In this document: in pieces, positions 6,642 through 24,199 of the stretch
Numbering within the stretch: the first letter of the stretch is position 1
Layout: every line of letters starts with the position of its first letter
Virus record (IMG/VR): IMGVR_UViG_3300037419_002193
Coordinates: 1 to 28,984 of that record
Reading direction: 5' to 3' (one strand)
Source of the DNA: a virus
Taxonomy: Duplodnaviria > Caudoviricetes
DNA: 28,984 nucleotides
Notes under the pieces: model-generated
The model's database searches: none
The model's input: the letters and a program-made list of their open reading frames with translations, nothing else
What the model was told of the DNA's origin: nothing
Program-made: the position numbers and the translations under genes

Positions 6642-6958
6642 ACCTCGCCGGGAACACGTGGTGGACGGGGCGGTGCGCGTCGGCCGCGCGGGCGACGACG
6701 CTCGACGACCTGCAGCGGATGGCCGCCGAGCTCGACGCCGCCGCGCCCAAGTGGAGCCCCCTGCCCTACGCCTGCACGCGCTGCCGCCGGGTAAGCCCCG
6801 CCGAGCCGACCGACCCGCGGTACATCGTGCTCCGGCCGGTCTACGCCGCCCCGTGCGCGGGGCGGCTGCCACCCGGGCCGCCGATCGCCTACCTCTGCCG
6901 CGTGTGCTACGCCCTCCTGCAGGCGCGACTCAACCCGCCCCGCCCCGCACGACTCTGA
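6638..6958 (+). CDS. putative Zn-binding protein
   Basis: GTGA overlap, GAGGAGG SD; CTRC...CRVC pairs. Confidence 0.65.
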   Translation: MNLAGNTWWTGRCASAARATTLDDLQRMAAELDAAAPKWSPLPYACTRCRRVSPAEPTDPRYIVLRPVYAAPCAGRLPPGPPIAYLCRVCYALLQARLNPPRPARL

Positions 6959-6980
6959 TAAATTGGGTAATTTCCGGCCC

Positions 6981-6989
6981 CGGTAGAAT
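6981..6989 (+). promoter_or_regulatory. putative host sigma-70-type -10 element (CGGTAGAAT; TAGAAT at 6984-6989)
   Basis: Sits in an AT-rich intergenic island (about 6955-6990), 10 nt before GTG 7000; one mismatch from TATAAT; no good -35. Confidence 0.55.
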
Positions 6990-6999
6990 CCCCCACACG

Positions 7000-8013
7000 G
7001 TGGAGCGACGATCGGGCGGCGGGCTGGGGGCGGAGGTACCGGGGTGGCTGGTGGAGGCCATCACGGCCCTCGCACGCGCCCAGGCCCAGCGGATGCGGGG
7101 GTACTTCGGGCACTTCCACGACATCGGCGAGGACGACCAGGTGCAGGTCGCGGTGGTGGGCGTGCTGGCCGCCCTGGGCGGGTACGACCGGCGGCGCGGC
7201 CCGGTCGAGGGCGCGGGGGGCGACCGCCTGTCCAAGCCCTTCTCGACGTACGCGACCACGGTGATCAAGCGCCGGCTGATCGACCTGCACCGGGGGCGGT
7301 CCCGCCGGGCCGCCCAGGACGTGGCGATCGCGGTGTGCGCGGACGCGGTGGCGCGGGGGGAGGCGGGGGAGGTCCCCGAGCTGGGCGACGAGGAGCTGGC
7401 GGTGTGGCTGCGGACGATCCGGGTGACGGCGCAGCGGCGGGCCGGCCGGGCCACCGACGCGCCGCGGCGGCGGGGAAGGCCGCGGCGGTTCACCCCGGCC
7501 CAGGAAGTGGCGTGCGCGGCCCTGATGTGGCGGCGGGGGCTTTCGCCCCGCGGCGCGGCGGCCGAGCTGGGCGAGCGGCCGGAGCTGGCGGCCGCGATCG
7601 GCCTGCCGGGCGTGCCCAGCCTGCGGTGGCTGGCCGGCGTCGCGGATTTCTGCACGCGTTTCCCCCAGAAAGCGGCTACGGCGAATAACCGGCGGGCAAC
7701 GGGCACGACGGGGCACGTCGGCCGCCTGCTGCCGTTCGTGGAGCTGCAACGGAGATCGGGCATGCAAAACTTGGTTCAGGGGGAGCTGCGGGACGTGCCG
7801 GCGCTGCTGCGCCTGGCGGACATCCAGGCGCGGGTCATCAACCTCTCGCGGTCGACCCTCGACCAGCTGATCGCGGCCAAGCGGTTCCCCGCGCCCGTGC
7901 GGCGGGTCGGGCGGCACCGGCTGTGGGCGCGGTCGGACGTGGAGGTGTGGCTGCGCACGCCCGAGCCCCAGGCGGCGCCGGCGGCCAAGCCCGCGGCCCG
8001 GGCGAATAACTGA
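7000..8013 (+). CDS. chimeric regulator: sigma-70 region 2 + IS-transposase-like N-terminal helical domain + in-frame AlpA-type HTH
   Basis: DDQVQVAVVGVLAALGGYDRRRG...FSTYATTVIKRRLIDLHR is sigma region 2.2-2.4-like; RFTPAQEVACAALM...RG...LGERPELAAAIGLPGVP resembles IS5/IS4-type transposase N-termini; no stop before the C-terminal HTH. Start GTG 7000 is inferred. Confidence 0.7.
   Translation: MERRSGGGLGAEVPGWLVEAITALARAQAQRMRGYFGHFHDIGEDDQVQVAVVGVLAALGGYDRRRGPVEGAGGDRLSKPFSTYATTVIKRRLIDLHRGRSRRAAQDVAIAVCADAVARGEAGEVPELGDEELAVWLRTIRVTAQRRAGRATDAPRRRGRPRRFTPAQEVACAALMWRRGLSPRGAAAELGERPELAAAIGLPGVPSLRWLAGVADFCTRFPQKAATANNRRATGTTGHVGRLLPFVELQRRSGMQNLVQGELRDVPALLRLADIQARVINLSRSTLDQLIAAKRFPAPVRRVGRHRLWARSDVEVWLRTPEPQAAPAAKPAARANN
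7682..7689 (+). promoter_or_regulatory. CGAATAAC motif copy 1 (putative late promoter), upstream of internal AlpA start
   Basis: Exact 8-mer; followed by GGAG (7751) and ATG 7762. Confidence 0.7.
7762..8013 (+). CDS. AlpA/excisionase-family HTH protein (internal in-frame start)
   Basis: LLRLADIQARVINLSRSTLDQLIAAKRFPAPVRRVGRHRLWARSDVEVWL is the AlpA pattern; own SD GGAG at 7751-7754. Confidence 0.75.
   Translation: MQNLVQGELRDVPALLRLADIQARVINLSRSTLDQLIAAKRFPAPVRRVGRHRLWARSDVEVWLRTPEPQAAPAAKPAARANN
8003..8010 (+). promoter_or_regulatory. CGAATAAC motif copy 2, 5 nt before terS GTG
   Basis: Exact 8-mer, no room for an SD. Confidence 0.75.
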
Positions 8014-8015
8014 GC

Positions 8016-8627
8016 GTGGCCAAGCGTCCCAAAAATCGCGAATTACGCGCGCCACGGCCGTCCCGGGCGGCGACCCGCACGGGGGCGTGGAAGGCGAAGT
8101 TCCTCGCCGCGCTGGCCGAGACGGGCAACGTGACCGAGAGCGCCCGCCGGGCCAACGTCGAGCGCCGCACCGCCCAGATTCACCACCAGGAGGACAAGGC
8201 CTTCGCCGAGGGGTGGGCCGAGGCCCTGGAGATCTACGCCGACTCCCTCGAGGCCGTGGCCGACCACCGCGCGACCCACGGGGTGGAGGAGCTCAAGATC
8301 TTCGACGGCCAGCCGGTGTTCGTGCTGCTGGACGCCCAGGGCCGCGTGAGCCCCAAGCCGTTCCTGCCCGGCTCGAAGGTGCCCAAGGGGTACTCGGTCG
8401 CCCCCGTGGTCGTGCGGCGGCCGTCGGACGCCCTGCTGATGAAGCGGCTGGCGGCCGTGCGGCCGGAGAAGTACCGCGAGCGAGTGCAGGTGACCCATGA
8501 CAAGCCCGACGGCCCCCGAACCCCCGCTGAGCGAGCAAGTGAGGCGGCTGCGCTGCTTGCTGAGCTCCGCGGCGTCGTCGGCGTTGACCCCGGAGCAGCT
8601 CCGGCGGGCCCAGCGGTTCCTGGCTGA
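8016..8627 (+). CDS. terS: terminase small subunit
   Basis: N-terminal HTH KFLAALAETGNVTESARRANV, DxxFAEGWAEA, SDALLMKRL...RPEKYRER; directly upstream of TerL. Confidence 0.85.
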   Translation: MAKRPKNRELRAPRPSRAATRTGAWKAKFLAALAETGNVTESARRANVERRTAQIHHQEDKAFAEGWAEALEIYADSLEAVADHRATHGVEELKIFDGQPVFVLLDAQGRVSPKPFLPGSKVPKGYSVAPVVVRRPSDALLMKRLAAVRPEKYRERVQVTHDKPDGPRTPAERASEAAALLAELRGVVGVDPGAAPAGPAVPG

Positions 8628-9993
8628 CCACGCGGTCGAGGTCGCCGAGCTCCGCGCCAGCGGCAAGCAGCGGCGGTTCCAGGAGGCGTTCTTCTCGCGG
8701 CGGGACCCGGCCGACGGCCGGCCGCTCAACGTGTTCGTGGCCATGGGGGGCAACCGCTCCGGCAAGTCGATCGTGTGCGGGTGGATGTGCTTCGCCAAGT
8801 ACCTGCGCGACCACGCCCGGAACGGGGACTGGTTCTGGACCGTCGCCCAGACCCTCGAGCGGAGCGTCGGCGGCATCCAGCAGGAGCTGTGGAAGGCCCT
8901 GCCCCGGTGGATGTTCGGCGCCCGCGGCAAGCGGTCGACCCACGCCTGGCGGACCGAGGCCCAGCACTGGGACGAGAAGATCGGCTTCGGCATGCACCGC
9001 AAGATCGTCCTGCCGACGGCCGACGGCGGGCAGTGCCTGGTCGAGTTCCGCTCGGCCGACCAGGCCCCCAGCACGTTCGAGCAGGCCAAGCTCTCGGGGG
9101 TGTGGTGCGACGAGCGGCTGCCGGAGGAGATCTTCAACCGCCTGATCCCCCGCGTGATCGACCGCAACGGCTGGATCCTCTACAGCGACATCCCCGAGCA
9201 GTTCTGGCACGTGACGCGGCTCAAGGAGGCCAAGCCCGACGCCGGGGTTTACTATCAGCACATGACCATGTACGACAACGAGGCGAACCTCCCGCCCGGG
9301 GCGATCCCCCGCGCGTCGGCCCTGATGACCGAGGACGAGAAGCGGCTCCGGGTCGAGGGCGAGCACGTGGTCATGGAGGGGCTGGTGTACAAGGAGTACT
9401 CCGAGGAGGCGAACGGGCACCTGGTCGACCCGTTCCCGATCCCGGCCGCGTGGCCGCGGTGGCGGGCGATCGACTACGGCGCCAGCGCCCCGACGGCCTG
9501 CCTGTGGCTGGCCATGAGCCCCAACGAGACGGCGTACCTGTACCGCGAGTACTACCAGGCGGGGCTCAGCGTGGGGAAGAACGCGGCGGCGATCGTGACG
9601 ATGAGCGGGGGCGAGGAGTACCGCCAGACGCTGATGGACCCGCACGCGGTCGACCCCCCGCCGGTGACGTACGGGGCGGCCAAGACGATCGCCCAGCAGT
9701 ACGCCGAGGCGGGCATCCGGTCGACTGGCTGGCCGTTCGTGCAGGTGATGGGGGAGCACTCGATGGTGCAGCGGGTCAAGTACCGCCTGGAGAACCGGAC
9801 GCTGAAGGTGTTCCGGACGCTGACCAACTGCCGGCGGGAGTTCCGCTCCTGGAAGTACAAGACCGACAAGGACGGGCGGCCGCTGGCGGCCGACGCGTTC
9901 GAGAACGGCAACAACCACCTGCTGGACTGCCTCAAGGGGTGGCTGGGCACCAACCCGAGCTACGTGCGGGCGGGGGTGCGGGTGGCCGAGTGA
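8497..9993 (+). CDS. terL: terminase large subunit
   Basis: Walker A GGNRSGKS, Walker B VWCDE, nuclease RAIDYG and NHLLDCL; overlaps terS by 131 nt. Confidence 0.95.
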   Translation: MTSPTAPEPPLSEQVRRLRCLLSSAASSALTPEQLRRAQRFLADHAVEVAELRASGKQRRFQEAFFSRRDPADGRPLNVFVAMGGNRSGKSIVCGWMCFAKYLRDHARNGDWFWTVAQTLERSVGGIQQELWKALPRWMFGARGKRSTHAWRTEAQHWDEKIGFGMHRKIVLPTADGGQCLVEFRSADQAPSTFEQAKLSGVWCDERLPEEIFNRLIPRVIDRNGWILYSDIPEQFWHVTRLKEAKPDAGVYYQHMTMYDNEANLPPGAIPRASALMTEDEKRLRVEGEHVVMEGLVYKEYSEEANGHLVDPFPIPAAWPRWRAIDYGASAPTACLWLAMSPNETAYLYREYYQAGLSVGKNAAAIVTMSGGEEYRQTLMDPHAVDPPPVTYGAAKTIAQQYAEAGIRSTGWPFVQVMGEHSMVQRVKYRLENRTLKVFRTLTNCRREFRSWKYKTDKDGRPLAADAFENGNNHLLDCLKGWLGTNPSYVRAGVRVAE

Positions 9994-12048: not shown

Positions 12049-12252
12049 ATGCTTCGATTGCTGACCGGTTTCCTGATCGTCGTTGTCAACTCGTGCGTGC
12101 TGGGCTACGTCGTCGGCCGGATGCACTCCGCCAGCCCCCTCTCGCTCAACTTCGACAACGGGGTGATGTGCGGCGTGGCCTACGCGCTGGGACTGACCGT
12201 TGGAAGCTATTTAATGGGCTCCGGCCTACGAGCAGTCGGGACCGGGGATTGA
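12049..12252 (+). CDS. small two-TM membrane protein (moron-like)
   Basis: GAGGAG SD then ATG 12049; two hydrophobic segments; more A/T-ending codons than neighbours; followed by terminator. Confidence 0.65.
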   Translation: MLRLLTGFLIVVVNSCVLGYVVGRMHSASPLSLNFDNGVMCGVAYALGLTVGSYLMGSGLRAVGTGD

Positions 12253-12271: not shown

Positions 12272-12305
12272 GACGCCGCCACCCGCCGGTGGCGGCGTTT
12301 TTCTT
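12272..12305 (+). terminator. Rho-independent terminator
   Basis: Perfect 11-bp stem ACGCCGCCACC (12273-12283)/GGTGGCGGCGT (12288-12298), 4-nt loop, then TTTTCTT. Confidence 0.85.
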
Positions 12306-12312
12306 GCGCCCG

Positions 12313-12320
12313 CGAATAAC
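12313..12320 (+). promoter_or_regulatory. CGAATAAC motif copy 7, 9 nt before portal ATG
   Basis: Exact 8-mer right after the terminator. Confidence 0.8.
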
Positions 12321-12329
12321 GCCCGCGGC

Positions 12330-14723
12330 ATGACCACCCTCCCCCAACTCCCCCCCATCGGGCAGATCGGCCCCGCCGACCACGCCACCGTGATCACCTT
12401 CCTGCAGGGCCTGGCCCAGGAGGCCCAACTCGAGCTGTCGAAGTGGTCCCGCCTGGTCGACGACAACCGCCGGTACTTCCACTGGGGCGGCCCCGACGAG
12501 CCCGACGACGACGAGGTCCGCGTCAACGACATCCAGAACGACGTGATCGCGATCACGGACCTGCAGACCAAGGAGCCCGCCCACCCGACCCTGGAGCCCG
12601 TCGAGACCGGCGAGCCGGGCGAGTGCTACTGGGCCGGGCCGCCCGCCGTCGGCGAGGCCCTGGGCCTGGCGGCGCAGCAGGTGGGCGAGTGGCTCGACGA
12701 GGGCGGCCAGGTGCGCCCGCCCCTGCCGATCGACCCGGACCGGGCCGACGACCTCCGCGACGCCGTCGCCGCCGGCGGGATCCCCACCGGGGCCGTCGAC
12801 CCCGTGACCGGCCAGCCGCAAGTGCAGCGGCTCAAGGAGCGGTGGCTGGTGCAGGTCGACGACCAGCTCGTCGCCGACACGTACCAGAGCCTGTTCGACG
12901 TCTACTGGCGGCGGAGCGGGACGGACCTGTGGAACCGCCAGAACCTGCTGAAGAACAACGTCCAGGGGTGGGCGTGGGGCTTGCTCGAGTTCGACGAGAC
13001 CCGCCAGCGGTTCGCCCTGCGGCACCTGTCGGTCAAGCAGGTGCTGGTCGACCCGACCGTCGCCGACATCGCCGACGCGGCCTACGCGGGGGTCAACCTG
13101 GCCATGGACGCCGGCGAGGCCAAGGCCCTCTACCCCCACCTGGCCGACGTGATCGACGAGAACGCCCAGCAGGGCGCCCCGGCCCGGTTCGACGCCTCGA
13201 CCAGCTACGGCGGGGCGTTCGACGACGTGAACTTCCAGCGGGGGATGGTCGCCCTGTCGGTCTGGTGGCTGCGCAACCACGCCTGCCCGTACACGCCCGA
13301 GCAGGCCGTGGCGCTGGGGCTGGTCGAGCAGCGCGAGGTTTCCGCCGGCGCGGTAGGGTCGGACGCTGAGGAGATCGATCATGGCTTGGGAACCGATCCC
13401 GGGAACGAAAATGGAGCGCTGGGCCAGCCGGTCGCCGGAGGAGCGGCTGGAAATCCGGGAGTGGGCGGACGAGCAGAGCTGGGAGACGCCGACGATGCCG
13501 CTGCTGGCGCCGACGATCGCGGGGGTCCGGGTGAGCCCGGGGGACGAGCTGTGGATGAGGAGGGAGCTGCGCCTGTGGTTCCAGCAGGCCAGGGGCTGGC
13601 GGCCGACGCTGGAGGAGACGCGGGAGGCGCGGGAGAGGAACACGAGCCGCCGGCGGGCGCGGATGGCGCGGCGGCCGCCCCTGCTGCCGCTGCGACCCGC
13701 GTCGGCCTCTTCCTGGCCGGCACGGACGAGGAGGTCACCCCGCTGACGCGCGCGGACGGGGACGGCGTCGACGCCCCCCACCCCAAGTGGCCGACGTACC
13801 CGTGCATCCGCCAGATCACCGTGATCGCCGGCTCGGTGGTTGTCGACGACGCGCCCTGCCAGCGCCTCGACATCCCCCTGCTGCACAACGTCTGCATCCC
13901 CGTCCTCGACCGCCCGTACGGGATCGGCGAGCCGTTCCGGCTCAAGACCCTGCAGCGGGCCCGGAGCAAGGCCCTGGGGACGATCGTCGAGCACGGCCAG
14001 TACTTCGGCCGGCCGATGATGGCCGTCCCGGCGTCGATCGCCGCGGCGCTCGAGGAGGAGTACGGGGACGCCCGGGCGGCCGCGGGCAAGACGCTGATCG
14101 TCGACGACGCCCTGTGGCAACAGCTCGGCGGGAAGATCGAGGCCGTCTTCGACCCCCCGCAGACCCCGCCCGCGCTGATCGCCCTGGTCGGGATGCTCAA
14201 GCAGGAGACGACCGACCAGTCCGGCAACACCGACGTCCTGGAGGGCAAGACCAGCCCGGGCGTCACGGCCGCCAGCGCGATCAACCTGCTGCAGCAGGCC
14301 GGCGTCTCCCAGATCGGGTTCAAGGCCAACCGCACGGCCGACATGGTCCGCCGGCAGGGGGAGCTGATGCTGCACGACCTGGTGCGGTTCCTCTCCGTCG
14401 ACGACGTCGCCCGCGTGGTCAGCCGCTACCCGCGGCACGTGCTGGAGGCGATCGTCGAGCGGGCCCGGCGGATCGAGTGGGACGTGTCGGTCGAGGTGTC
14501 GGCCGGCAACGGGGCGATGCAGGCCCAGAAGCGGCAGGAGGCGATCGAGAAGCGCAAGGCGGGGGCGATCAGCCTGGAGTCGCTCCAGGAGGCCCTGGGC
14601 GTCGACCCGCGGCTGGAGAAGCGGCGGATGGGGCAGGAGGCGGCGGAGCAGCTCCAGGCCCAGGCGCAGGCGGCGGCCCAGGTGCAGGGGGCGGGGGCGT
14701 CGGCGCCGCCGCCGCCGGCTTGA
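12330..14723 (+). CDS. portal protein (P22-like) with large insertions
   Basis: Position between TerL and scaffold/capsid; VLVDP, PYGIGEPFRLKTLQ and SGNTDVLEG...TAASAINLLQQAG motifs; Gln-rich C-terminus. Start reassigned from 11901. Confidence 0.85.
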   Translation: MTTLPQLPPIGQIGPADHATVITFLQGLAQEAQLELSKWSRLVDDNRRYFHWGGPDEPDDDEVRVNDIQNDVIAITDLQTKEPAHPTLEPVETGEPGECYWAGPPAVGEALGLAAQQVGEWLDEGGQVRPPLPIDPDRADDLRDAVAAGGIPTGAVDPVTGQPQVQRLKERWLVQVDDQLVADTYQSLFDVYWRRSGTDLWNRQNLLKNNVQGWAWGLLEFDETRQRFALRHLSVKQVLVDPTVADIADAAYAGVNLAMDAGEAKALYPHLADVIDENAQQGAPARFDASTSYGGAFDDVNFQRGMVALSVWWLRNHACPYTPEQAVALGLVEQREVSAGAVGSDAEEIDHGLGTDPGNENGALGQPVAGGAAGNPGVGGRAELGDADDAAAGADDRGGPGEPGGRAVDEEGAAPVVPAGQGLAADAGGDAGGAGEEHEPPAGADGAAAAPAAAATRVGLFLAGTDEEVTPLTRADGDGVDAPHPKWPTYPCIRQITVIAGSVVVDDAPCQRLDIPLLHNVCIPVLDRPYGIGEPFRLKTLQRARSKALGTIVEHGQYFGRPMMAVPASIAAALEEEYGDARAAAGKTLIVDDALWQQLGGKIEAVFDPPQTPPALIALVGMLKQETTDQSGNTDVLEGKTSPGVTAASAINLLQQAGVSQIGFKANRTADMVRRQGELMLHDLVRFLSVDDVARVVSRYPRHVLEAIVERARRIEWDVSVEVSAGNGAMQAQKRQEAIEKRKAGAISLESLQEALGVDPRLEKRRMGQEAAEQLQAQAQAAAQVQGAGASAPPPPA
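13351..13359 (+). promoter_or_regulatory. putative -10 element CGGTAGGGT for the nested gene
   Basis: Same CGGTAGRRT pattern as at 6981 and 14917(-); GAGGAG SD begins 9 nt downstream. Confidence 0.4.
13381..13746 (+). CDS. nested gene in the +1 frame inside the portal gene
   Basis: GAGGAG at 13368-13373, 7 nt before ATG; G/C-ending codon bias moves from portal frame to this frame across about 13381-13690; portal frame there is a Gly/Ala/Asp low-complexity loop. Confidence 0.7.
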   Translation: MAWEPIPGTKMERWASRSPEERLEIREWADEQSWETPTMPLLAPTIAGVRVSPGDELWMRRELRLWFQQARGWRPTLEETREARERNTSRRRARMARRPPLLPLRPASASSWPARTRRSPR

Positions 14724-14969: not shown

Positions 14970-16136
14970 ATGCGCAACCGACACCGCAACGCGATCCGGA
15001 TGATCGGCCTGGCCGCCATGGCCGGCCTGGGCCTGCAGTACAACAACCCCACGACCGGGGCCGGCGACGGCCCCGCCGGCGGCGGGGGGGGCGGCGGCGG
15101 GGGCTCAGGGGGGTCGACCCCGCCGCCGCCGGCCAAGGCCCCGGCCCCGATCCCCGACACGACCGTCGAGCAGGACCTCGACCTGGCCGACCTCGACCGC
15201 CTGGCCGACCTCGACCGCCTGGCCGACGACGGCGGCGCGGCCGGGGGTGACGACGGCGACGGCGCGGGGGAGGGTGAGGAGGGAGCCGCGGGCGACGGCG
15301 GCGACGCCGGGGAAGGTGCGGCCGACGGCGAGGGCGAGGGCGGCGCCGCGGCCGAGGGCGAGGGCGAGGGGGACGCGGACCAAGGCGAAGAGGGGGCGGC
15401 CGCGGCGGAGGGCAAGGACGCCACCGCCGGGGCCGGCCAGGGGAAGGAAGCCGACGGCGACGCCGGCAAGGACCCCGCCGGCGACGGCGCCGGCGGCGCG
15501 GATCCGGCCGCCACGGAGGCGGCCCGGCAGTTCGCCCAGCGCGTGCGGGCCTTCCAGACCGGGTTCTCGACCCTCAAGGCCAAGCTGGCGGAGAAGGACC
15601 CGGCCAAGGCCTTCGACCCGGTCACCGACGGCGAGGCGTTCGCCCGCACGCTCCTGGAGGGCTTCGAGCTGCTCGACGCCCGCCTGTCGGAGGTCAGCGG
15701 CACCGTCACCCAGCAGCGGCAGGCCGCGGCCGCCGAGGACTTCTGGTCGACCTGGGGCAAGACCAACGCCGACGTCGGCGCCGCCAAGGCCCGCTCGGTC
15801 TGGCACGAGGAGGTCGCGGCGGCCCGCAAGAAGTACCCCACGGCCTCGGCCGAGACCCTGCAGGCCGTCGCCCAGGAGCGGTGGGAGAGCCGCGTGAACC
15901 TGATCCGCGCCCAGGCCAAGGCCGCCGCCAAGGGCAAGGGCGGGGCCAAGCCGGGGGCGCCCGCGGCCGCGAAGCCGGGCACCCCGCCGCGGCCGCCGGC
16001 GACCAAGGGCGGCGGCGCCGTGATCCCGCGGGCGGCCGCCGGCACCGGCACCCGCCCGCCGGCCCCGGCCAAGCCCCGCAGCGTCGACGACCGCCTCGAG
16101 GCCGGCGAGTACGGCAACCTCGCGGCGCTCGTCTGA
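14970..16136 (+). CDS. capsid scaffolding protein (putative)
   Basis: Directly before MCP; acidic Gly/Asp/Glu disordered N-half, helical middle, Pro/Lys C-tail ending in a short helix. Confidence 0.75.
   Translation: MRNRHRNAIRMIGLAAMAGLGLQYNNPTTGAGDGPAGGGGGGGGGSGGSTPPPPAKAPAPIPDTTVEQDLDLADLDRLADLDRLADDGGAAGGDDGDGAGEGEEGAAGDGGDAGEGAADGEGEGGAAAEGEGEGDADQGEEGAAAAEGKDATAGAGQGKEADGDAGKDPAGDGAGGADPAATEAARQFAQRVRAFQTGFSTLKAKLAEKDPAKAFDPVTDGEAFARTLLEGFELLDARLSEVSGTVTQQRQAAAAEDFWSTWGKTNADVGAAKARSVWHEEVAAARKKYPTASAETLQAVAQERWESRVNLIRAQAKAAAKGKGGAKPGAPAAAKPGTPPRPPATKGGGAVIPRAAAGTGTRPPAPAKPRSVDDRLEAGEYGNLAALV
15183..15227 (+). repeat. 2.5 x 18-bp in-frame tandem repeat CTGGCCGACCTCGACCGC (LADLDR)
   Basis: Exact copies at 15183-15200 and 15201-15218, partial 15219-15227. 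Confidence 0.85.
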
Positions 16137-16226: not shown

Positions 16227-17402
16227 ATGGCTGACAGCGCAAAGATCCGTTCGGGCCTCGCGGGCCTGATGCAGGACCACCTCTCGGACAAGGCGGTGAG
16301 CCTGCTCGTGAACACGATGCCGTTGATCTACTTCCTGATCAACCGCGACGGCAACAAGGCCACCAACTTGAAGGGCACCGGCAACGGGGCCCCGGGCTTC
16401 TACGGCCTGGGCCGCTTCGCCACGGGCTCGCTGTTTTCGGGCGTGCCGGTCTCCAAGACCCGGCGCGAGCAGATCCTGAACAGCGACAAGTACATGCCGA
16501 TCGTCAACACGATCCTGCCGCCCGCGTCGGACGGCAAGGTCGCGACGATGACCGACACCATGCCCACCCGGGCCAACGCCACCACCAACACCACCTCCAG
16601 CCGCTTCGTCCGCCCCTTCTTCAAGTGGGTCGAGCGCATCGACCCCATCCTGGTCTGGAAGAAGGAGATCCGCCGCACCAAGAAGGCGGCCGCCAACGAG
16701 AAGGCCGCCAGCGTCGCCGTCGGCGACCTGTTCAAGAGCGAGGCCGAGCAGGTGATGACCACGCACCTGCAGTGGTGGAACGAGCAGTTCTGGGGCACGA
16801 ACGGCGCGGCGGGCGCCCCGTCCAACGTCGACGCCGACGTGTGGGACGCCAACTACAGCCTGCGCAACGCGAACAAGGCCGACAACGTCTACGGCGGCGT
16901 CGACCGCTCGATCGCCGGCAACGCCTGGTGGCGCGGGAATTACGACAACGTCGCCCGCCCGCCCGTGTTCGAGGACCTGATCAACGACGCGTGCTTCGTG
17001 AAGGGGATCGCGAAGAAGGGCCAGGGGGCCGAGCTGGCGCTGTGCAGCGTGCTGGACTTCCCGGTCTTCTGGGCCGAGGTCAAGGCCAAGGGCGGGCAGA
17101 TCTACTACGACGGCCTGCCGGACATGGGCGAGGTCGGCTTCAAGCGGCCGGTGTTCCGCTTCAACAACACGTTCTGCACGTTCGACCCCGAGTGCCCCCA
17201 GGGCGACCTGGCCGTGCTCAACCTCTCGACGTGGACCGTGGCCGTCAGCCCCGACGCCAACTTCACGGTCGACGACGCCTTCGACCTGTCGAAGACCGAC
17301 GGCGGCAAGGACGCGATCAAGAGCCAGATCCGCACCGAGATGATCGTGGCCAACGAGGCGCCCGGCCTCAACGTGTACTACGACAACATCCAGCAGGGGT
17401 GA
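16227..17402 (+). CDS. major capsid protein (putative HK97 fold)
   Basis: 391 aa after scaffold; very strong codon bias; YGGVDRS...WW and GF...F...DPECPQG...LN patterns typical of phage coats. Confidence 0.85.
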   Translation: MADSAKIRSGLAGLMQDHLSDKAVSLLVNTMPLIYFLINRDGNKATNLKGTGNGAPGFYGLGRFATGSLFSGVPVSKTRREQILNSDKYMPIVNTILPPASDGKVATMTDTMPTRANATTNTTSSRFVRPFFKWVERIDPILVWKKEIRRTKKAAANEKAASVAVGDLFKSEAEQVMTTHLQWWNEQFWGTNGAAGAPSNVDADVWDANYSLRNANKADNVYGGVDRSIAGNAWWRGNYDNVARPPVFEDLINDACFVKGIAKKGQGAELALCSVLDFPVFWAEVKAKGGQIYYDGLPDMGEVGFKRPVFRFNNTFCTFDPECPQGDLAVLNLSTWTVAVSPDANFTVDDAFDLSKTDGGKDAIKSQIRTEMIVANEAPGLNVYYDNIQQG

Positions 17403-23225: not shown

Positions 23226-23930
23226 ATGGGCAACCAGTTCACGATGACCCCGGCCGCCGCGCCGGCCCAGGGGATGACCCTCCAGGAGGCCCGCAAGTGG
23301 GTCCGCTTCTACGCCCGCGACGCCGCCGGGTCGAAGAGTGCCTACCAGGACGAGGACGTCGACCGCGCCCTGGCGGCCGTCGGCGAGCAGTTCTGCCGGG
23401 TGACCACGTGCAACCGCCGCGCGGACTCGGTCGCGATCGCCGCCGGCGACGCGGCGGTCGACCTGGCGAGCCTGGGGGCGGGCTTCCACCCCGAGCGGGT
23501 CGTGTCGGCGATGGTCGTCGGCTCGGCCTGCGCCCTGCGGCGGCCGACCTGGGCGGACCTGCAGCGCAAGGCGGCCGAGTGCCCCGCCCCGGGCCGGCCG
23601 GCGGAGATCGCCTGGGAGGCGCCCGGCGGCGCCCAGGTCTGGCCCACCCCGGACGCCGACTACACGCTCAAGGTGCAGTGGTGGGAGCCGTTCACGACCT
23701 GGACGCCCGGGGTGGACGACGCGACGGCCGCGACGATCACGCTCAACTGCCGGCCGGACTACCTGGTGCAGTGGCTGCCGTTCGGGCCCACGGCGATGCT
23801 GCAGCACAACGAGCCGGACATGGCCTACGCCAGCGAGAGCTGGCAGAAGTACCTGGCCGTGGAGGCGAAGCTCCGGGGGGCGGGGGCGCTGGGGGCGCGG
23901 ACGCTCACCCGGCGCAAGGCGTGCTGGTAG
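23226..23930 (+). CDS. head-tail adaptor / tail tubular protein-like
   Basis: MTLQEARKWVR...DVDRAL...FCRVT and GRP...QVWPTPDADYTLKV patterns of phage adaptor proteins; start reassigned from 22134. Confidence 0.7.
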   Translation: MGNQFTMTPAAAPAQGMTLQEARKWVRFYARDAAGSKSAYQDEDVDRALAAVGEQFCRVTTCNRRADSVAIAAGDAAVDLASLGAGFHPERVVSAMVVGSACALRRPTWADLQRKAAECPAPGRPAEIAWEAPGGAQVWPTPDADYTLKVQWWEPFTTWTPGVDDATAATITLNCRPDYLVQWLPFGPTAMLQHNEPDMAYASESWQKYLAVEAKLRGAGALGARTLTRRKACW

Positions 23931-23941
23931 GATCGCCCGCC

Positions 23942-24199
23942 ATGAACGAGCCCGCCCGCCCGGCCCCGATCCGCATCGAGATCCCACCCGCGCCGCCGCC
24001 GCCACCCTCGCCCGCCCAGCGGGCCGCCGCCGTCACGATCGCCGCCATCCGCGAGGCGGGCATCGACCCGCGCAAGGCCGCGGACGTGCCGATGATCCGC
24101 CAGCTCGTCGCCGAGTGGCTGCACGGCCGCCAGAGCCGGGCCACGTTCATCGACTGCTGCCGCAAGGTCGCGATCCTCAACCCGTCCCTGCTCGCCTGA
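23942..24199 (+). CDS. hypothetical protein
   Basis: ATG 23942 fills gap; G/C-ending codons. Confidence 0.65.
   Translation: MNEPARPAPIRIEIPPAPPPPPSPAQRAAAVTIAAIREAGIDPRKAADVPMIRQLVAEWLHGRQSRATFIDCCRKVAILNPSLLA

Follow-up and report, generated by a model that had tools for sequence, protein, structure and literature searches.

The virus record IMGVR_UViG_3300037419_002193 (IMG/VR; Caudoviricetes) was analyzed at its full length of 28,984 bases, and this whole stretch of DNA is referred to below as the window. Its head-gene cluster includes a gene for a P22-like portal protein, an assignment that rests on a match to the phrog_156 profile (E = 7e-20), a match to PF16510 over the cut-off, a Foldseek list for the AlphaFold model headed by solved portal folds, and a position in the order that runs from terL to the capsid gene (Table 1). 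Inside the portal gene, in the +1 frame, lies a complete second open reading frame (ORF) with its own translation start signals (13381-13746 within 12330-14723). It overlaps a segment in which the portal frame encodes an acidic loop rich in Gly, Ala, Asp, and Glu (G/A/D/E), and both frames are open; the portal frame has no stop throughout its length, as the initial annotation of this DNA had recorded. The nested ORF is probably a real, selected gene. The larger finding is the recurrence of unrelated nested ORFs at this one portal loop.

The overlap is marked by a break in codon usage. The fraction of portal-frame codons ending in G or C (GC3) is 73/118 (0.62) within the loop and 633/638 (0.99) outside it (Fisher p = 1.5e-34), the A/T-ending codons noticed at the outset being present at that site (GGA ×14, GCT ×8, GAT ×5, and AAT ×2 in 13380-13691). 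A per-frame GC3 profile of the gene, suggested as a check, confines the drop to the loop, and in a phase map of the window the loop stands out as a clear frame switch within a long gene. Over 13381-13692 the +1 frame has a GC3 of 0.95, and in the loop the codon adaptation index (CAI) is 0.65 for the nested frame and 0.21 for the portal frame. The +1 frame has a stop shortly 5′ of a Shine-Dalgarno (SD) sequence, GAGGAG, which was correctly placed 7 nt before the nested ATG and pairs with the anti-SD (for which we assumed the usual motif) at −11.2 kcal/mol, more strongly than 13 real starts of the window (−0.1 to −10.0 kcal/mol). Five alternative-frame ATGs occur inside the loop, and the other 679 portal codons contain none. 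The product contains 25 K+R, 16 D+E, and 8 W residues and no Cys in 121 aa. This anatomy is established, with one correction to the description of the +1 frame as a G/C-biased protein: the last ~18 nested codons (portal GC3 1.00 and CAI 0.92; nested GC3 0.72 and CAI 0.20) are a by-product of conserved portal sequence with portal-optimal codons.

Table 1. Features of the portal locus and neighboring head genes, in order of position in the window.
Feature	Coordinates	Strand	Evidence or remark
terL	8497-9993		Head-gene cluster; terS also present (profile matches)
CGAATAAC, inferred late-promoter element	12313..12320	+	9 nt 5′ of portal ATG; leaderless geometry
Portal protein gene, P22-like, 797 aa, host frame	12330-14723	+	phrog_156, PF16510, Foldseek, position between terL and scaffold-like gene/MCP
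Acidic G/A/D/E portal loop, dual-coded segment, aa 338-455, 118 codons	13341..13694	+	GC3, pLDDT, homologue spans
TAGGGT, candidate −10 hexamer	13354..13359	+	Sole plus-strand TANNNT in portal gene
Segment swapped for 12 nt in X7 allele	13363..13500	+	Contig comparison; net −126, frame-preserving
Shine-Dalgarno GAGGAG of nested ORF	13368..13373	+	7 nt 5′ of ATG 13381; −11.2 kcal/mol
Nested +1 ORF, 121 aa, orphan	13381..13746	+	Translation; X7 allele substitution pattern; no homologue
Internal in-frame ATG, nested Met39, possible second start	13495..13497	+	SD −7.3 kcal/mol; near start of shorter X7 allele
Nested C-terminal tail entering conserved portal strand, by-product	13693..13746	+	Codon usage
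Scaffold-like gene	14970-16136	+	Name from position only
Major head protein (MCP)	16227-17402		Profile matches

A second G/A/D/E stretch in the window, the linker of the scaffold-like gene (15060-15800, plus strand), has nearly the same first-base composition as the portal loop and serves as its counterpart without overprinting. The +1 frame of this linker is open for ~245 codons without a Met, and its own-frame GC3 is 0.94. Any G/A/D/E stretch can be expected to have a +1 frame that is open and ends its codons in G or C, and the length of the nested ORF is therefore no evidence for a gene; likewise, since the linker keeps its GC3, low complexity by itself does not depress GC3 in this genome. 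The informative anomaly is the drop in portal-frame GC3 together with the start signals. When portal codons were resampled synonymously with the protein held fixed, the probability of an SD-led ORF cover at least as large as the real one was 0.05, 0.11, 0.008, 0.26, 0.35, and 0.49 in six loops (combined p = 0.01). The silent codons themselves are skewed: GGA outnumbers GGT 14 to 2 in the portal loop (p = 2e-5 against the ratio of the parent codons), which is opposite to transition drift from GGC>GGG, and GGA followed by G encodes Glu in the +1 frame.

Selection on the alternative frame was examined with an allele ~90% identical to the window, recovered as record 9 of run X7 (a single contig at depth 6). 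In the pieces compared, 32 of 43 differences in 13501-13948 and 6 of 12 in 13200-13362 are displayed, the rest apparently lying no farther than 40 nt from the ends of the pieces; the tests cover 13541-13904 plus 13250-13308, where the differences appear to be complete. Portal codon position 1 is nested codon position 3, and the ratio of C↔G changes at portal position 1 to those at position 3 is 6:0 within the loop and 2:17 beyond it (p = 1.6e-4; counting a 13-nt cluster once gives 3:0 vs. 2:17 and p = 0.006). Changed sites make up 2/41 of the portal four-fold positions in the loop and 13/45 of those in the 3′ flank (p = 0.004), the opposite of what a relaxed loop would predict. This frame-shifted substitution pattern is established for the one allele, other tests of selection being null or weak. 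The pattern named at the outset as telling against a nested gene, a conserved portal-frame loop with stops accumulating in the +1 frame, is not that of the window lineage as judged from this allele. The X7 allele has lost the SD and ATG of the window and with them the first ~38 nested codons; the 12-nt replacement holds a +1-frame ATG near Met39 of the window ORF.

Recurrence of nested ORFs in relatives is likewise established. Six acidic loops of at least 40 aa were available as DNA: those of the window, L003 and L004 (identical loops, counted once), L005, L010, L013, and L015. SD-led +1 ORFs are present in five of the six, with L013 as the exception. The GC3 dip is restricted to the loop in L003 (p = 9e-17), L005 (p = 1e-10), L010 (p = 1e-4), and L015 (p = 8e-3), and in these four related loops the first +1 ATG has an SD (−9.6, −7.6, −11.5, and −10.1 kcal/mol, respectively). 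The ORFs comprise one of 81 aa in L003, one of 43 aa and Lys-rich in L005, a tandem pair of 37 and 73 aa in L010 (SD of the second, −14.9 kcal/mol), and one of 48 aa and basic in L015, whose portal is 26% identical; those of L003, L005, and L015 stop at or near the loop end. The nested products of the window and its relatives do not match one another. In portals with a short loop, no significant GC3 dip was seen in L011 and L016, and by inspection no SD-led ORF in the hairpin of L006-L009, L021, and L022. The L021 portal has a GC3 dip of 0.56-0.72 at codons ~241-330, running from upstream into its short hairpin, and a 64-aa +1 ORF at codon 260 (SD −8.1 kcal/mol). In P0016, where the reading of the portal slips as the loop begins, an alternative frame is open across a loop of the P0011 type. 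The motif AAQDVGAG[DN] is kept in L005, P0015, and P0028 amid otherwise divergent loops and, to judge from these sequences, would mark a conserved part of the Lys-rich product. The portal genes of L003 and L004 are nearly identical and come from separate contigs of a single assembly, with 65 differing positions and codons 281-584 identical, which suggests recent recombination; the loop sits in this 300-codon identical block, and the pair is therefore uninformative for selection.

Relatives were found in assemblies titled Planctomycetaceae and Tepidisphaerales and in 5/401 genomes of that class, and a planctomycete is therefore the likely host of the phage. The genome samples that yielded relatives gave 5/401, 2/141, 2/45, and 1/401, mostly the same genomes. 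A search for further DNA of relatives returned no match in INPHARED and, from viral_contigs, one near-copy of the window phage and two short-loop relatives among seven pattern matches. Metagenome runs that contain the sequence come from soil and rhizosphere.

At the protein level, the loop is a feature of the portal family. In the AlphaFold2 model the predicted local distance difference test (pLDDT) score is below 50 for portal aa 341-453, which lie between strands at 332-338 and 456-462, and the loop is thus predicted to be disordered and to sit at the tip of a β-hairpin; from general portal architecture, this site is presumably the wing, inside the capsid. Among close homologues (32-48% identity, BLASTP), 12 of 13 share at this site a long G/A/D/E loop whose length varies, and one has a short loop. 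The wider family comprises 358 representatives of 50%-identity clusters at E ≤ 1e-30, of which the best 150 were retrieved; the span between the W and WPT anchors is ~45-235 aa in homologues. A long loop (span at least 95) is found in 74 of 145 sequences and a short one in 71, and the two states change 28 times on a tree computed without the loop (shuffled mean 49, minimum 36), the sister of the window portal having a short loop. The portal thus resembles other P22-like portals (PF16510, phrog_156) in host protein sequence and predicted fold, and differs in a β-hairpin extension whose acidic insert is variable and often harbors a second ORF. These results bear on two earlier proposals. The initial annotation regarded the ORF as a small gene inserted into a tolerant loop and expected relatives to lack an insertion of ~120 aa; the data bear out a nested gene, likely real, that has an SD and ATG of its own in a tolerant loop, and an insertion absent from relatives is not supported, since most close homologues have a long loop as well. 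It also held that embedding in an essential gene protects the nested gene from loss, a notion made doubtful by the shortened X7 allele, the 28 changes of loop state, and the short loop of the sister portal.

Free-standing homologues of the 121-aa product (P0002), also sought at the suggestion of the initial annotation, did not emerge. A set of 5.8 billion sequences gave 55 candidates, restricted to lengths of 66-212, none at E ≤ 0.001; a collection of 15 billion proteins contains the host portal but not the nested protein; nested products had no match in PHROGs or Pfam; an Atlas search gave a best value of 0.79 for P0002 and nothing for the L003 product; the L005 peptide has no homologue among proteins of similar length; and neither P0002 nor the L005 peptide has a free-standing copy in the window or the fetched loci. 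The nested ORF is accordingly an orphan within a widespread portal family, a contrast to be read with the fact that gene callers miss nested ORFs. A single-sequence AlphaFold2 model of P0002 consists of four helices (predicted template modeling score, pTM, 0.25), among them an Arg-rich one at aa 77-97. Given this predicted helix and the strongly basic character of three of five related products, we tentatively suggest, at rather less than even confidence, a late, lineage-specific basic accessory protein whose Arg-rich helix may bind nucleic acid or the acidic surface of the head.

Expression would begin at the portal promoter. The element CGAATAAC has 12 exact copies in the window (7682, 8003, 10003, 10339, 10632, 11152, 12313, 14925, 16157, 18896, 24231, and 28731), all on the plus strand and none in the loop, and 7 of the 12 lie 5-9 nt before an ATG. 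It stands directly 5′ of the portal gene in L003, L004, L005, and L011 and, ahead of head genes, is conserved in L003, L004, L005, L010, L011, and L013. The portal start has no SD, and CGAATAAC is likely a phage late-promoter element that would yield leaderless mRNAs. A strong hairpin resembling an intrinsic terminator (12272-12299, plus strand) lies immediately 5′ of the portal copy. An ORF at ~6658-8013 (plus strand) with weak matches to sigma-70 region 2 and to helix-turn-helix/excisionase families is a candidate phage sigma factor for CGAATAAC; its start is probably near 7000, past AT-rich sequence in which three TANNNT hexamers lie at 6959-6989. With no copy of CGAATAAC in the loop, translation of the nested gene would proceed from portal mRNA by internal initiation. 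The hexamer TAGGGT, which the initial annotation offered as a −10 element, is indeed present and is one of only six plus-strand TANNNT sequences in the window; in the X7 allele it would, if intact, lie 6 nt before the ATG. A sigma-70 scan found no full promoter at TAGGGT, and a −10 hexamer is missing 5′ of four of the five nested starts in relatives; it may nevertheless add a second promoter for the nested gene. A similar hexamer, TAGGAT, lies 8 nt before the ATG (~23942) of an unlisted gene, in the plus-strand stretch 23928-23942.

On balance we infer, with somewhat more confidence than doubt, that the portal loop is dual-coded and that overprinting of a tolerant loop, where this happens repeatedly, gave rise to the nested gene. 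Ribosomes would start at the internal GAGGAG-ATG on late portal mRNA transcribed from CGAATAAC, and the +1 frame would yield the small basic protein from DNA that is read in the portal frame as a predicted disordered insert. The G-first codons of a G/A/D/E loop would leave the +1 frame already open and G-ending; Glu, Gly, and Val codons would provide SD-like purine runs and Asp codons the ATG. Silent third positions of the portal are second positions of the nested frame, and selection on the new protein would lower portal GC3. With loop length shifting in multiples of three, unrelated nested genes could arise, lengthen, become doubled, or disappear at one site in different lineages.

A number of observations weigh against this reading. 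Openness of the +1 frame is expected by chance, the probability of as few stops as observed being 0.35-1.0 under synonymous resampling of the six loops, and outside the loops an SD, an ATG, and an ORF of at least 35 aa coincide for four ATGs at three sites in ~5,100 codons. The acidic loop of L013 has three +1 stops, no significant GC3 dip, and an SD-led ORF of only 14 aa. A codon-frequency likelihood model of the +1 frame beats a relaxed three-parameter model at none of eight loci (window, −157 vs. −138). In tests on protein sequences alone, an excess of first-base changes is seen in two close pairs (11:2 and 26:9), is absent in three deeper pairs, and is not above that of the rest of the portal gene (p = 0.36). 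A start motif, V-x-[DNH]-[GAVED], showed no enrichment in long loops, at 24/71 against 19/64 (15 of the 150 proteins were left out and 135 retained), and basic residues are partly forced by the genetic code opposite acidic ones. The X7 test comes from one contig at depth 6 with 11 of 43 differences in a piece undisplayed, and the nested frame of that allele has six residue-changing and three silent codons, so that constraint on the product is moderate. The L011 portal has a +1 ATG at codon 222-223 with a strong SD (−11.5 kcal/mol) and a 139-aa ORF; this lies in a conserved part of the portal, derives from E-E-I-D-D codons beside a mild GC3 dip at codons 241-270, and is probably due to chance.

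Of the other explanations, the capture of complete small SD-bearing genes, inserted in register with the portal loop as their shadow, is the most probable but still unlikely. At a GC3 of ~0.99 a frame that starts on the third base of a captured gene almost never has a stop, and the portal frame would stay open; the 138-nt segment missing in X7 has its own GAGGAG-ATG, an SD like that of ordinary window genes; the second SD of the L010 tandem overlaps the first stop, as in an operon; and the nested frame has the higher CAI (0.65 vs. 0.21). The third positions of the nested frame are nevertheless unlike those of window genes, four-fold codons ending in G 49 times and in C 8 times compared with 1012:1281 (p = 1e-10). 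This bias keeps the portal loop G/A/D/E, which tells against the original notion that the loop is purely a by-product frame, and in our judgment it is more readily explained by a +1 frame that grew on an acidic loop and is kept in check by the portal's requirement for G/A/D/E than by recent capture of a gene, although it could also reflect later adaptation. AGG, a rare codon here, occurs four times in the nested frame; no target duplication or terminal repeat is found at the loop ends; the acidic loop of L013 exists without an ORF; and the searches described above gave no free-standing donor for P0002 or the L005 peptide.

Less probable still is a relaxed loop that has lost codon selection and drifted to A/T-ending codons, its ATG and SD arising from Asp and Glu-Glu codons, with no +1 product. 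This would accommodate the better fit of the relaxed model to third bases, the default openness of +1 frames, the counter-example of L013, the creation of the same SD-ATG by E-E-I-D codons in the conserved part of L011, and the lack of homologues. It accords poorly with portal-silent sites that vary less than those of the flank (2/41 vs. 13/45) and C↔G changes shifted by one frame, with the equally low-complexity scaffold linker that stays at a GC3 of 0.94, with the excess of GGA over GGT, and with an ATG retained across a 126-nt indel. A non-coding element constraining the loop DNA (a structured RNA, an intron, or a regulatory site), or bypassing or splicing that skips the loop, would account for the silent-site constraint and for a rare TAGGGT at the loop start, and is very improbable: folding is ordinary (z −1.04 to +1.44 in 16 windows), the one Rfam match reaches 17 bits against a 45-bit cut-off, the constraint is three-periodic, and an open portal frame makes skipping unnecessary. 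An intron, intein, or bypassed gap was further rejected for want of an Rfam match at threshold or an intein family among the Pfam matches, and bypassing as in Streptomyces is inapplicable, as the inserts reported there are 10 nt long and disrupt the frame (PMC10732093). That two compensating frameshifts, programmed or from assembly, make the +1 frame the true portal sequence is scarcely credible despite its genome-like GC3, as the homologues' acidic loops resemble the portal frame, a +1 stop lies just before the SD, L001 differs by a single base outside the portal, and the X3 contig (12647-14900; 0 differences, 0 gaps; possibly the source sample) and the X4 contig (13072-13934; 0 gaps; all 9 differences at 13820-13904, beyond the loop) are gap-free and therefore exclude the assembly error that the initial annotation had named as fatal.

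Complete out-of-frame nesting within another gene of a double-stranded DNA (dsDNA) phage, with its own start, is a feature of Rz1. Rz1 is an embedded spanin within Rz (PMC6139136); the portal case shares the arrangement. Rz and Rz1, however, form a fixed functional pair marked by a lipoprotein signal, and the portal-nested product is replaced between lineages. The product was rejected as an o-spanin of the Rz1 type because its 121 aa hold no Cys for a lipobox and its host gene is the portal. In mycobacteriophage Patience, same-strand out-of-frame ORFs embedded in genes 91 and 20 were expressed by mass spectrometry, one of which has a strong ribosome-binding site, and are generally unconserved (PMC4324244). 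Those ORFs too lie wholly within annotated dsDNA phage genes; they are not in the portal, and the accessible portion of that paper describes neither a recurrent site nor loss of codon bias in the host frame. The single-gene lysis (sgl) genes of ssRNA leviviruses are small and mutually unrelated, arise repeatedly, sometimes two per genome, and are embedded in the +1 frame of the essential rep gene, mostly in divergent regions; they were found by SD and ORF criteria in a screen that demanded a predicted transmembrane domain (PMC7693330). The repeated birth of unrelated +1 genes in a divergent part of an essential gene is common to both, whereas the portal case concerns a tailed phage with dsDNA, a gene for a structural protein of the virion, and a single disordered loop as the site. 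An Sgl-type lysis gene was rejected on inspection, the phage having dsDNA and the product 25 K+R, 16 D+E, and no long hydrophobic run. Viral overlaps in general favor disordered regions, and young de novo frames change rapidly, purifying selection on them being weak (PMC8227390). The portal overlap also lies in a predicted disordered region, but the rule that the novel frame is the less genome-like is reversed, the presumed ancestral portal frame having lost its bias (CAI 0.21 vs. 0.65). No report of genes nested in a portal loop was found in the open literature, subscription journals being outside the scope of the search. Elsewhere in the terL-portal interval, a 67-aa hydrophobic ORF (12049-12252, plus strand) has a good SD and a lower GC3 of 0.79, and no family match in PHROGs or Pfam.

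Nested genes of phages are already known, usually as fixed pairs or from tiny genomes; what is new is one portal loop that appears to carry different, lineage-specific genes. The loop is likely, from the sequences compared, a recurring birthplace of small, putative phage proteins missed by annotation. Whether it acts as a family-wide gene nursery, in which most long acidic loops hide their own unrelated +1 gene or pair, born, extended, and lost repeatedly, is a bolder proposal to which we give a little less than even credence. The family contains natural controls (short loops, an acidic loop without an ORF, a loop with two ORFs, and alleles that differ by one module), which make de novo birth and capture directly testable by an allele series, and a GC3 dip in an acidic linker combined with an SD-ATG in the +1 frame provides a simple screen for genes that callers miss. 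If the nursery proposal is true, numerous phage proteins would await annotation, and acidic linkers in high-GC phages would, as a general rule, seed basic +1 proteins.

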